From Escherichia coli (GTDB lineage: Bacteria > Pseudomonadota > Gammaproteobacteria > Enterobacterales > Enterobacteriaceae): a stretch of 64,000 bases of DNA. The notes under the pieces were generated by a model. That model saw nothing but the letters and a program-made list of their open reading frames with translations, did not search any database and was not told where the DNA came from. The position numbers and the translations under genes were made by a program. Shown here in pieces: positions 2,849 to 4,817 of this stretch. Each line of letters opens with the position of its first letter. Positions within the stretch are counted from its first letter, which is position 1. The stretch lies in NCBI RefSeq assembly GCF_024298765.1, contig NZ_CP101210.1, one strand, 5' to 3'.

Positions 2849-3750
2849 CTTCACCATTTATTCAACAAATTGCTGATAACCGGGTATGTCAGGTACTCAC
2901 CTGTCTTCCTGAAAAATTTGTGGTTGATTTCGCAAACGGAATCGATGTTGCACAGGAGCATATCCGCACGGCCAGAGAGCGCACGTTCTTCCGGCGTTTA
3001 AAAGAGGGACTGACCGGCGAAGGCGCTGCACGGCAGAATGCCATCAATGCTTCGCTTGCACAGGGCGTTGAGGCGTCCCTGCGCTGGCTGACGGAGCTGA
3101 CAACGTCACTTGCCACCACAAACTACGCGATTACCCGGGTAAACGACAGGGTCAGTTCACTGGTCAGTGATACTGCCAGGCTGGCGCATTATTCCGCAGA
3201 TACACGGGAGCAGTTACTCATCCTGGCCGATCAGGTTCACCATAAACTGAATCATCTTGAAGAAAAACTCCACCGTGTTGACCAGGTTCAGCGGGCGCAG
3301 TTACATCTTGAGCAGATATTCTCATGGTGGAGCGCCGGGCGATACGCGTCATTTTCCCCTGCCGGACGTTGTTATGTGGCACTTGAAGAGCTTCGCTGGG
3401 GCGCGTTTGGTGATGTGATACGTCAGGGCGAAACAGGCCAGGTTAACCAGCTACTGGATATTCTCAGACATAAAGCATTAACGCAGATGGCACAGGAGAG
3501 TGGCGGTAGTGCAACCGTGCGTCTGAACACTCTGGACTGGCTTGGTGGTCAGGGCCGGGAGCAGGCAGATAACGAGTGGCATGACGCGATTAACTGGCTG
3601 GGAGACTGGTGCAGTGAAGAGCAGCATCCGGTGATCTGGTCAACCACGCAGGCTGCAGAACACTTACCGGTTCGCATGCCTCGCCTCTGCTCTGCAGAAC
3701 GCCTCTCTGAAAGTATGGTCGATGAAATATTTCAGAAGGGGGCTGCATGA
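2845..3750 (+). CDS. Hypothetical protein, 301 aa, translationally coupled between the dynamin-like GTPase and patatin genes
   Basis: GTG start at 2845 overlaps upstream stop (GTGA); its stop overlaps the downstream ATG (ATGA at 3747-3750); no recognisable catalytic motif. Confidence 0.7.
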   Translation: MTSPFIQQIADNRVCQVLTCLPEKFVVDFANGIDVAQEHIRTARERTFFRRLKEGLTGEGAARQNAINASLAQGVEASLRWLTELTTSLATTNYAITRVNDRVSSLVSDTARLAHYSADTREQLLILADQVHHKLNHLEEKLHRVDQVQRAQLHLEQIFSWWSAGRYASFSPAGRCYVALEELRWGAFGDVIRQGETGQVNQLLDILRHKALTQMAQESGGSATVRLNTLDWLGGQGREQADNEWHDAINWLGDWCSEEQHPVIWSTTQAAEHLPVRMPRLCSAERLSESMVDEIFQKGAA

Positions 3751-4817
3751 GTACAGAAATGAAAACGGGGCTGGTGCTGTCCGGTGGCGGGGCGGTGGGC
3801 GCTTATCAGGCGGGAGTGGTTAAGGCACTGGCAGAGTGTGGTACACAGATCAGCATGGTTTCAGGGGCCAGCATTGGCGCATTCAATGGTGCCATTATCG
3901 CGGCCTCTCCCGATCTGTCAGAAGCTGCCGTACGCCTGGAGGCGCTCTGGGATCATCTGGGGAATAATCAGGTGCTGTCGGTAAACAGATTGGTTTACTT
4001 TTCATTGCTGAAAAAACTGCTCCCGGCCATGAACCTCTGCCAGCTCCCCGGACGTGCGGGCGCACTGCTTACGACGCTTCTTCACCATATATCGACAATC
4101 AACAGGTTTGACAATCTGATGACTCAGCCGTTGTTGTCAGATGGGCCCCTGACAGTGCTGATGGATCATTATCTTGATACTGATGATCTGGCTGACGGGC
4201 TACCGTTGTATGTGTCGCTGTACCCCACGGAAGGGGGAATGCAGGATATTATCGACTGCATTCGTGCTGAACTGGGTACCGGAACTACAAAAAACTCCGT
4301 TTTTCAGCATATCCAGAGCCTGCCCCACGGGCAGCAGAAAGAAGCCTTACTGGCGTCAGCAGCACTGCCCCTGCTGTTCCGTCCCCGTGAGGTACAGGGA
4401 AAAATGTACGGTGATGGTGGTATGGGCGGATGGCAAAATATGCAGGGGAATACCCCTGTGACGCCACTGGTGGATGCCGGATGCAATATGGTGATTGTGT
4501 CGCATCTGAGTGACGGTTCTTTATGGGATCGCCGGGCTTTTCCGGACACCACAATCCTTGAAATCCGTCCCCGGAAAAAGCTGAAACAAACAGGGGAAGA
4601 AGGCAAAAGTGGCGGTCTGCTCAGTTTTACATCGGCACATATCGACACCTGGCGTCAGCAGGGCTATGAAGACACGATGCTGGCGATGGAGCATATCCGG
4701 AAACCACTGGAGGCGCGTCAGGCACTGACCCGGTCAGAGGCGGTGTTGCAGAAAAGTCTGGAGAAAACGGAAGAGGCAGATTTGGCACTGAGAAACGCGA
4801 TGGCCCGGATTAAATAA
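3747..4817 (+). CDS. Patatin-like phospholipase, 356 aa
   Basis: Gly-rich oxyanion motif SGGGAVGAY, GxSxG nucleophile motif GASIG (Ser42, nt 3870-3872), DGG motif YGDGGMGG (Asp223, nt 4413-4415). Confidence 0.85.
   Translation: MSTEMKTGLVLSGGGAVGAYQAGVVKALAECGTQISMVSGASIGAFNGAIIAASPDLSEAAVRLEALWDHLGNNQVLSVNRLVYFSLLKKLLPAMNLCQLPGRAGALLTTLLHHISTINRFDNLMTQPLLSDGPLTVLMDHYLDTDDLADGLPLYVSLYPTEGGMQDIIDCIRAELGTGTTKNSVFQHIQSLPHGQQKEALLASAALPLLFRPREVQGKMYGDGGMGGWQNMQGNTPVTPLVDAGCNMVIVSHLSDGSLWDRRAFPDTTILEIRPRKKLKQTGEEGKSGGLLSFTSAHIDTWRQQGYEDTMLAMEHIRKPLEARQALTRSEAVLQKSLEKTEEADLALRNAMARIK

Follow-up and report, generated by a model that had tools for sequence, protein, structure and literature searches.

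Several described systems come close to the locus considered here, and two of them may be named first. The patatin-fold lipases CapV and CapE of the cyclic oligonucleotide-based antiphage signalling system (CBASS) are held inactive until a signal arrives, and in Escherichia coli K-12 RdcA (YjdA/CrfC), a dynamin-like GTPase, activates, with RdcB (YjcZ), the diguanylate cyclase DgcE by binding to it directly, the GTPase being active in its nucleotide-free form and GTP acting as inhibitor (PMC6510439). The locus itself lies within 64,000 nucleotides (nt) of E. coli DNA (contig NZ_CP101210.1 of assembly GCF_024298765.1), a stretch which was analysed as a whole and is called 'the window' in the following; it comprises three genes which encode a dynamin-like GTPase, a YjcZ/RdcB-like protein and a patatin-like lipase (Table 1). 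Our analysis suggests that the lipase is a cytoplasmic enzyme gated by the GTPase and by the YjcZ-like adaptor, that the three genes constitute a mobile module, and that this module has a triggered, defence-type role, a statement which we give, as a whole, a probability of about 0.5. Its enzymatic core can be stated with considerably more confidence: the patatin is very probably an active hydrolase working within the dynamin-YjcZ-patatin triad.

The first two genes can be compared with the K-12 pair directly. The product of gene 1 is 34% identical to RdcA over the full length (E 3e-122), and the product of gene 2 is 31% identical to RdcB (E 7e-39). When searched with the NCBIfam CrfC equivalog, gene 1 scores 566.7 bits and thus does not reach the cut-off of 1146. 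Since this score is below the equivalog cut-off, since the identities are as low as 34% and 31%, and since the genes reside on the aspV island and not at the proP locus, genes 1 and 2 are, as judged from their sequences, paralogues and not orthologues of RdcA and RdcB.

The patatin gene product and its catalytic motifs

The protein encoded by gene 3 matches the Pfam family Patatin (PF01734) over residues 9-239 (E 3.3e-25; 89.8 bits versus a cut-off of 27.7). A sequence-only reading of the window had located in this protein a GASIG nucleophile elbow with Ser42, a DGG motif with Asp223 and an N-terminal Gly-rich loop, SGGGAVGAY (residues 12-20, with the three consecutive glycines at 13-15), and all three motifs turn out to be where they had been placed, the coordinates of Ser42 and Asp223 having been confirmed by script. 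Ser42, Asp223 and all glycines of the loop are found in 72 of 72 YjcZ-linked patatin relatives. In the alignment of relatives, Ala203, Ser204, Ala206 and Pro208 of an ASxxxP block are likewise invariant, and the DGG motif is followed by an insert specific to the family, GGWxxMQGNTP. The conservation in all 72 relatives, along with a ratio of nonsynonymous to synonymous substitution rates (dN/dS) of 0.23 when the E. coli allele is compared with that of E. albertii, implies that these motifs have not arisen by chance and are subject to purifying selection.

The AlphaFold2 (AF2) model of the protein, built on 24 relatives, exhibits a mean predicted local distance difference test (pLDDT) score of 73.9 and a predicted template modelling score of 0.72. 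In this model, a strand (residues 37-40) precedes a helix (residues 43-53) and Ser42 sits on the strand-turn-helix elbow that they form, and Asp223 is located where a strand ends. A Foldseek search with this model yields PlpD (4e-11) and also CapE, CapV, VipD, ExoU and potato patatin (1oxw), with a probability of 1.00, and all of the best matches in the PDB are patatin-fold lipases; PlpD is at the same time the closest relative in sequence for which a structure has been solved (E 2.8e-18 in a profile alignment). The protein does not qualify as the housekeeping patatin RssA (YchK), since the corresponding equivalog aligns to the N-terminal 50 residues only and scores 31.9 bits against a cut-off of 272. 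It is annotated by the NCBI Prokaryotic Genome Annotation Pipeline as 'patatin-like phospholipase family protein'. No signal peptide is evident, and there is no space for one because strand β1 begins at residue 7; furthermore, no 19-residue window resembles a transmembrane segment, the maximum Kyte-Doolittle value of 1.52 being located at the catalytic core. Lack of an export signal makes a cytoplasmic enzyme, as likewise proposed by the sequence-only reading, a reasonable interpretation. The open reading frame (ORF) is hence predicted to encode a Ser-Asp patatin-type acyl hydrolase which is cytoplasmic and catalytically competent. At the level of the motifs this finding is correct but ordinary, the gene being already annotated and common.

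Two regions of the model lie outside the conserved motifs. Residues 82-125 form an insertion of low confidence which contains the most amphipathic segment of the protein (residues 103-121; hydrophobic moment 0.44), and which is, as far as the model can tell, probably a lid or interfacial region and thus a candidate for controlling substrate access. The distal part of the long C-terminal helix (about residues 315-356) is missing in stand-alone relatives and is shortened in proteins in which YjcZ and patatin are fused, matches to the fusion proteins ending at query residues 315-342. We infer that this distal helix is a candidate docking element.

The Gly-rich loop deviates at one position from the canonical motif GGx[R/K]G, the basic residue being replaced by Val17; in a profile alignment, the Arg of PlpD (SGGAARG) falls into the same column. 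The loss noted by the sequence-only reading is thus real, while its suggestion that activation requirements are altered finds no support in the family: at position 17, the 72 YjcZ-linked patatins contain Lys in 53 cases, Arg in 8 and Ile, Val, Met or Leu in 11, so that a basic residue is kept in 61 of 72 (85%), and no compensating basic residue is gained elsewhere in this set alongside the loss. The 11 hydrophobic variants belong to at least three separate lineages, that is, Enterobacterales/Vibrio, a lineage of fusion proteins and a cyanobacterium. The alignment therefore indicates that a basic residue at this position is the original state of the family and has been lost several times while the remaining conservation stayed intact, and because most relatives retain Lys or Arg, losses occurred in separate lineages and no compensation is seen, Val17 looks like tolerated drift, i.e., a variant of the lineage and not the signature of a changed mode of activation. 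Mammalian PNPLA1-5 (the ATGL/adiponutrin group) also lack a basic residue in their Gly-rich loop (GxGxxG) and are active on neutral lipids, which shows that loss of Arg/Lys is compatible with activity; there is no detectable specific relationship between these enzymes and the present family. By analogy, Val17 may shift the substrate preference of the patatin. Even if the protein were to prove an ordinary accessory lipase, the idea that loss of Arg/Lys is diagnostic is thereby corrected.

The three-gene operon and its distribution

The assignment of the patatin to a three-gene unit is borne out by the operon itself and by its conservation: the patatin gene is inherited and transcribed together with its partners, and the order dynamin, YjcZ, patatin recurs across species. 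In the window, the GTG start codon of gene 2 overlaps the stop codon of gene 1 by 4 nt, and the ATG of gene 3, preceded by the Shine-Dalgarno sequence AAGGGGG, overlaps the stop codon of gene 2 by 4 nt, so that translational coupling is suggested at both junctions. At 17 nt past the stop codon of the patatin gene there is a terminator-like hairpin with a T-run, at 4837-4853 of the region given in Table 1, with which the operon ends. The GTPase motifs of gene 1 (G1, GTMKAGKST; G2, T102; G3, DTPG; G4, NKFD) are invariant in 60-64 relatives from triads. Neither the gene 1 nor the gene 2 protein exhibits a membrane span, and the dynamin-like protein is devoid of a hydrophobic paddle as well. The AF2 model of the gene 2 protein (pLDDT 83.5) is all-α, with a helix of ~105 residues and a compact helical domain, and its comparison with known structures yielded no informative relative. 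Comparison of the E. coli and E. albertii alleles gives dN/dS values of 0.18 for the dynamin and 0.09 for the YjcZ-like gene.

An exhaustive, profile-free search with the patatin returned 207 clusters (50% identity) at E<1e-30. One genome per species was then scanned, which gave 169 relatives, and 80 loci were kept, whose ORFs were searched with the three proteins from the window. The complete series dynamin, YjcZ, patatin on one strand is present in 59 of these 80 species-level loci; at 7 more, the YjcZ gene adjoins the patatin gene and the dynamin gene is off the contig or decayed, and 3 are uninformative (two at a contig edge, and L069, which is ambiguous). The remaining 11, in the range L071-L087, encode patatins of ~325 residues from ten Synergistaceae and one Neomegalonema (L073) which match the query over residues 8-311 or 8-324 only, and thus lack the distal C-terminal helix. 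In the two such loci examined (L085 and L086), the patatin gene stands alone among housekeeping genes, that is, formate dehydrogenase and MobA, or purD and purE; these Synergistaceae-type patatins, the farthest matches of the search and at the same time the closest relatives beyond the triad, were accordingly excluded as members of the triad. Triads occur in Gamma- and Betaproteobacteria, including contigs of Pseudomonas and Vibrio, in Cyanobacteria, in Desulfovibrio, in metagenome-assembled genomes (MAGs) related to Verrucomicrobiota and in one MAG from the Synergistaceae, a patchy distribution across phyla which is typical of horizontal transfer. A second-round hidden Markov model for YjcZ was discarded, since it was contaminated by fusion proteins and matched patatins.

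In three representative clusters, YjcZ and patatin are fused into a single protein of 657-707 residues, the Pfam YjcZ domain being detected in two of them, and at the two fusion loci examined, P0180 and P0229, the fusion gene directly follows one or two dynamin genes. By the Rosetta-stone argument, these fusions imply that YjcZ and the lipase touch. Moreover, E. coli, Klebsiella and Enterobacter carry the complete triad on IncF plasmids, where it is flanked by insertion sequence (IS) elements only and where none of its other neighbours is conserved, from which one may argue that the three genes are self-sufficient. The IncFIA/FIB plasmid of E. coli AW1.7 may serve as an example (L102, 1372-5743; whole triad between IS5 and IS30), the IncF plasmids concerned being mobilizable or conjugative; the plasmid form is represented by 29 records with a 60%-identical patatin that carries Ile at the Arg/Lys position. 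Some triads contain a second dynamin gene, placed in tandem before YjcZ or after patatin (L005, 229-6801; L038, 4930-11098; L064, 1290-8390; L084, 1705-8351), and in one Synergistaceae MAG a single ORF of ~1690 residues matches the dynamin query. These two-dynamin architectures approach the layout of the two-dynamin system Eleos.

In the window, the operon is located in a CP4-type integrative island at the tRNA-Asp gene aspV, which adjoins dnaQ. The operon is flanked on one side by a truncated YeeP-type GTPase gene and on the other by genes for DUF932, antirestriction, RadC/JAB and YeeU/CbtA proteins. Many complete E. coli genomes, including those of avian pathogenic E. coli (APEC) strains and of Nissle 1917, match the window exactly or almost exactly, and its first 16.9 kb are colinear with strain 104, from which they differ by 7 mismatches. 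Of 5426 complete genomes of E. coli, 2498 (about 46%) contain the patatin gene, in up to four copies each, and its alleles fall into two groups with at least 99% and with 90-95% nucleotide identity to the window copy. Truncated alleles exist as well, e.g., with products of 237 and 202 residues in O157 and O104 strains, yet clusters of full-length proteins dominate.

The patatin gene has diverged further than its partners: it is 90-95% identical between the allele groups (2346 records) versus 95-99% for the operon as a whole (1794 records), and the patatin protein is 90% identical to that of E. albertii versus 96-99% for the partner proteins. Recombination, or faster evolution of an effector, may account for this difference. 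In a study of the evolution of olaquindox resistance in E. coli ATCC25922, 75 mutations were assigned to 'rssA' (patatin domain) and 122 to 'crfC' (PMC7696260); these probably reflect mis-mapping of reads between paralogous triad copies and not real selection.

Table 1. Operon, patatin motifs and island features in the window
Feature	Position	Strand	Basis or remark
Promoter-like site TTAATA-18-TATCAT	341..370	+	consensus scan, 9/12; weak, such sites occur at chance level in the region
Gene 1, dynamin-like GTPase, 798 residues, RdcA/CrfC paralogue by sequence	452..2848	+	Pfam Dynamin_N, 3e-18
Gene 2, YjcZ/RdcB-like protein, 301 residues, GTG start	2845..3750	+	Pfam YjcZ, 5.5e-71
Gene 3, patatin-like lipase, 356 residues	3747..4817	+	translation, Pfam, AF2 model
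Block I, Gly-rich oxyanion loop, S12-G-G-G-A-V17-G18	3780..3800	+	Val where canonical Arg/Lys is expected
Block II, nucleophile elbow, G40-A-S42-I-G44	3864..3878	+	Ser42 = AGC, nt 3870-3872
Variable low-confidence insertion, residues 82-125	3990..4121	+	pLDDT <50; hypervariable and rich in indels in the alignment of relatives
Block III, A203-S-A-A-L-P208 (ASxxxP)	4353..4370	+	alignment of relatives
Block IV, D223-G-G, predicted catalytic Asp	4413..4421	+	Asp223 = GAT, nt 4413-4415
Long C-terminal helix, residues 296-355	4632..4811	+	AF2 model
Terminator-like hairpin and T-run	4834..4863	+	7-bp stem with 5 GC pairs, then TTTTTCC
DUF932 (CP4-type island module)	7436-8257		annotation transferred from strain 104
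Antirestriction (CP4-type island module)	8596-9069		annotation transferred from strain 104
RadC/JAB (CP4-type island module)	9085-9561		annotation transferred from strain 104
YeeU antitoxin (CP4-type island module)	10558-10932		annotation transferred from strain 104
CbtA toxin (CP4-type island module)	10979-11356		annotation transferred from strain 104
Frameshifted IS630 and IS66 copies, then aspV tRNA-Asp (16618-16694)	11924-16694		annotation transferred from strain 104

The remaining ORFs next to the operon were rejected as parts of the system. Downstream, positions 4946-5413 and 5469-6098 of the window (+ strand) encode two hypothetical proteins with signal-peptide-like N-termini, MRLSNIFLAVVLTVTVSVAHA and MKHFLILVIGLLISITATA, for which no match was found in Pfam, NCBIfam or PADLOC; they lie past the operon terminator and have no counterpart beside triads in other taxa. 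The upstream flank contains only a domain-less ORF and the truncated GTPase remnant mentioned above. This remnant (window 1-234, + strand) is the C-terminal part of a YeeP/YkfA-type island GTPase and belongs to the island backbone and not to the triad; it shares 89.6% identity with the final stretch of a 349-residue MMR_HSR1 GTPase from E. albertii (L009, 5439-6488), and the corresponding gene of strain 104 is a truncated ORF of 144 residues.

A proposed gated lipase and its alternatives

We propose that a self-contained module, mobile by horizontal transfer, has the patatin as its enzymatic output, and that in this module the dynamin-like GTPase would keep the lipase inactive, acting through a YjcZ/RdcB-like adaptor that is in direct contact with the enzyme. 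Upon a trigger, which might be infection by a phage, damage to the membrane or a drop in GTP, the lipase would be released or activated and would then hydrolyse phospholipids of the inner membrane, with the result that either the infected cell dies (abortive infection) or the membrane is remodelled locally. The proposed gating is based on the analogy with the paralogous pair RdcA/RdcB, for which direct binding to an enzyme has been described as indicated above. VipD from Legionella is a patatin-type phospholipase A1 that is switched on allosterically by binding the GTPase Rab5, and the Rab5-activated enzyme (PDB 4kyi) thus constitutes a precedent for a GTPase-gated patatin.

A role in defence, as implied when the sequence-only reading found the lipase consistent with an abortive-infection-type effector, is in keeping with genomic context. 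In Vibrio, the triad is located between a WYL regulator and genes of the bacteriophage exclusion (BREX) system (brxL, pglZ), and in Pseudomonas a BrxR-type WYL regulator is found in its vicinity, as are an ADP-ribosylglycohydrolase and an integrase. In about 18 of 63 loci, regulators with helix-turn-helix, WYL and WCX domains occur upstream of or near the triad, several of them immediately upstream on the same strand. When 148 randomly sampled neighbour ORFs (within 8 kb) were searched, 101 PADLOC models were matched at E<=1e-10, with Zorya II (ZorA, 3e-188; ZorE, 2e-128), type I and type III restriction-modification and MzaA as clear cases. Fifty core-genome proteins used as a control matched 6 models, which corresponds to about 0.68 per neighbour ORF versus 0.12 per core gene, a crude enrichment in view of redundant PADLOC models, naive ORF calling and a small control. 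Neighbour matches to MADS (mad2/3/8) were discounted, since the same models match two-component and ABC proteins of the core genome in the control. According to a transcriptome published in 2026, Kapi1 lysogens of E. coli MP1 strongly up-regulate the triad operon, which adjoins EcoKI and Druantia in this strain and was called a putative defence system; its authors found no literature link between phospholipases and bacterial dynamins (PMC12922286). As judged from defence-island neighbours, WYL regulators and the location on mobile islands and plasmids, the abortive-infection reading of the patatin is plausible.

Several observations weigh against such a role. No PADLOC v2 family and no CBASS-lipase model is significant for any of the three proteins. 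E. coli copies lack a WYL regulator and occupy a cargo slot of CP4-type islands which carries non-defence cargo as well. In E. coli O157:H7 PNUSAE146744 (L101, 3024-7071), an IS3 element has eliminated the larger part of the dynamin gene and has left the RdcB-like and patatin genes intact and annotated, a natural variant without GTPase, so that the lipase is not lethal without the GTPase, unless the promoter was possibly lost along with the dynamin gene. The cassette, common as it is in E. coli, is not known to have been recovered in published pangenome selections against T4, lambda and T7. That the patatin family is phage-borne was rejected as well, since 50,697 phage genomes contain 0 matches and a single close match in IMG/VR lies at a contig edge. 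Finally, searches of the literature found neither a functional study of the triad nor an experiment that demonstrates lipase activity, toxicity or phage protection, PMC12922286 being the only paper found to mention the operon.

The alternative that deserves most attention is non-suicidal membrane maintenance, in which the GTPase would remodel or seal the inner membrane and the patatin would produce lysolipids or clear damaged lipids for curvature, fission or repair; phage protection, if any, would then result from delayed lysis rather than from cell death. A role at membranes is known for the dynamin superfamily, DynA from B. subtilis protecting by way of membrane integrity, and it is in line with such a function that no obvious immunity or antitoxin gene is encoded with the lipase and that 46% of the E. 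coli genomes stably retain the cassette. The present dynamin-like protein is, however, devoid of a hydrophobic paddle and of a transmembrane segment, RdcA, the nearest of its relatives to have been characterised, regulates an enzyme as a soluble protein and does not remodel membranes, and defence islands with WYL regulators are a context that suits triggered systems. We thus consider membrane maintenance possible yet rather unlikely. That the partners are full-length paralogues of RdcA/RdcB, a pair which contacts an enzyme directly in order to regulate it and for which GTP is the inhibitor, might also be taken to mean that the GTPase pair reads GTP or the growth state and switches on the lipase to create a lipid signal, or to adjust the membrane, for biofilm formation or stationary phase, unrelated to phages. 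Signalling of this kind appears improbable for a module whose distribution across phyla is patchy, that is spread by horizontal transfer on islands and plasmids, that adjoins restriction, BREX and Zorya genes, and whose partner proteins both score well under the orthologue cut-offs.

Two further readings were considered. The closest solved structures being PlpD, VipD and ExoU, and the gene residing, in extraintestinal E. coli, on the aspV pathogenicity island, one could imagine an exported phospholipase for virulence or competition, with the partners as chaperones or delivery factors. We hold this to be the least credible explanation: the protein has no signal peptide and is no passenger of a POTRA/β-barrel protein, neither chaperones of a type III secretion system nor secretion genes are found in or beside the operon, and triads also occur in free-living cyanobacteria, methanotrophs and Pseudomonas as well as in the probiotic strain Nissle 1917. 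Very improbable, too, is functionless island cargo in decay, whose motifs would be intact merely because it was acquired recently. The truncated O157 and O104 alleles and the IS3-disrupted dynamin gene could be read in this way, yet the three genes have dN/dS values of 0.09-0.23, the catalytic and GTPase residues do not vary across phyla, full-length patatin clusters prevail, and MP1 transcribes the operon and regulates it.

Returning to the GTPase- and adaptor-gated lipase, the object of interest is the conserved, mobile dynamin-YjcZ-patatin cassette, which is not in the defence catalogues that were queried, and which is carried by nearly half of the sequenced E. coli, among them Nissle 1917, APEC and O157, and by IncF plasmids of Klebsiella and Enterobacter. 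It is tempting to speculate, with more doubt than confidence, that the triad represents an unrecognised class of immune or stress-suicide module in which a large GTPase, and not a nucleotide second messenger, senses infection or GTP depletion and a dedicated adaptor unleashes a membrane lipase, RdcA and RdcB, which belong to the E. coli core and regulate c-di-GMP signalling, being lipase-less relatives that were re-targeted to DgcE. If true, control of a patatin lipase by a dynamin-like GTPase would represent a new logic from sensor to effector in bacterial immunity, with parallels both to patatin toxins activated by GTPases (VipD) and to eukaryotic antiviral GTPases of the dynamin/Mx type; the uncharacterised YjcZ family would acquire a general role as adaptor between dynamin-like GTPases and enzymes, and the RdcA/RdcB-DgcE biofilm switch a testable origin.

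Comparison with known systems

Like CapV and CapE, the present protein is predicted to be a cytoplasmic Ser-Asp lipase of patatin fold without export signal, encoded by the last gene of a small mobile operon, and its model matches their structures with Foldseek E-values of 2e-7 to 7e-7. Unlike them, it is not accompanied by a cGAS/DncV-like nucleotidyltransferase or another gene for cyclic-nucleotide signalling, its putative controllers being a dynamin-like GTPase and a YjcZ protein. Sequence identity to CapV/CapE is about 14-16%, the NCBIfam model CBASS_lipase scores 18.3 against a cut-off of 200, and the PADLOC models for CBASS effectors reach E 1.6e-4 at best, with the N-terminal 60 residues only.

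With the exported toxins VipD from Legionella and ExoU and PlpD from Pseudomonas, the protein shares the patatin fold. Those proteins possess additional C-terminal or passenger domains and act on a host, whereas the 356-residue protein comprises a patatin domain and one helix, is predicted to stay in its producer, and has a GTPase partner that is encoded in the same operon.

The anti-phage system Eleos ('Dynamins', LeoA/LeoBC) employs dynamin-family GTPases in defence islands, the GTPase motifs being required for its defence (Millman et al.), and the triad shares with it a GTPase of this family. Eleos has two consecutive dynamin genes and neither YjcZ nor a lipase, whereas the triad typically has one dynamin gene, and the LeoBC model matches gene 1 with E 1.6e-4 only, without a passing stretch. 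The pair RdcA-RdcB of K-12, finally, exhibits the same gene order, the same overlapping junction and paralogy over the full length of both proteins. K-12, however, lacks the triad operon and has rdcAB only; this locus contains no patatin gene and its target enzyme, DgcE, is encoded elsewhere, whereas the triad brings its own enzyme.

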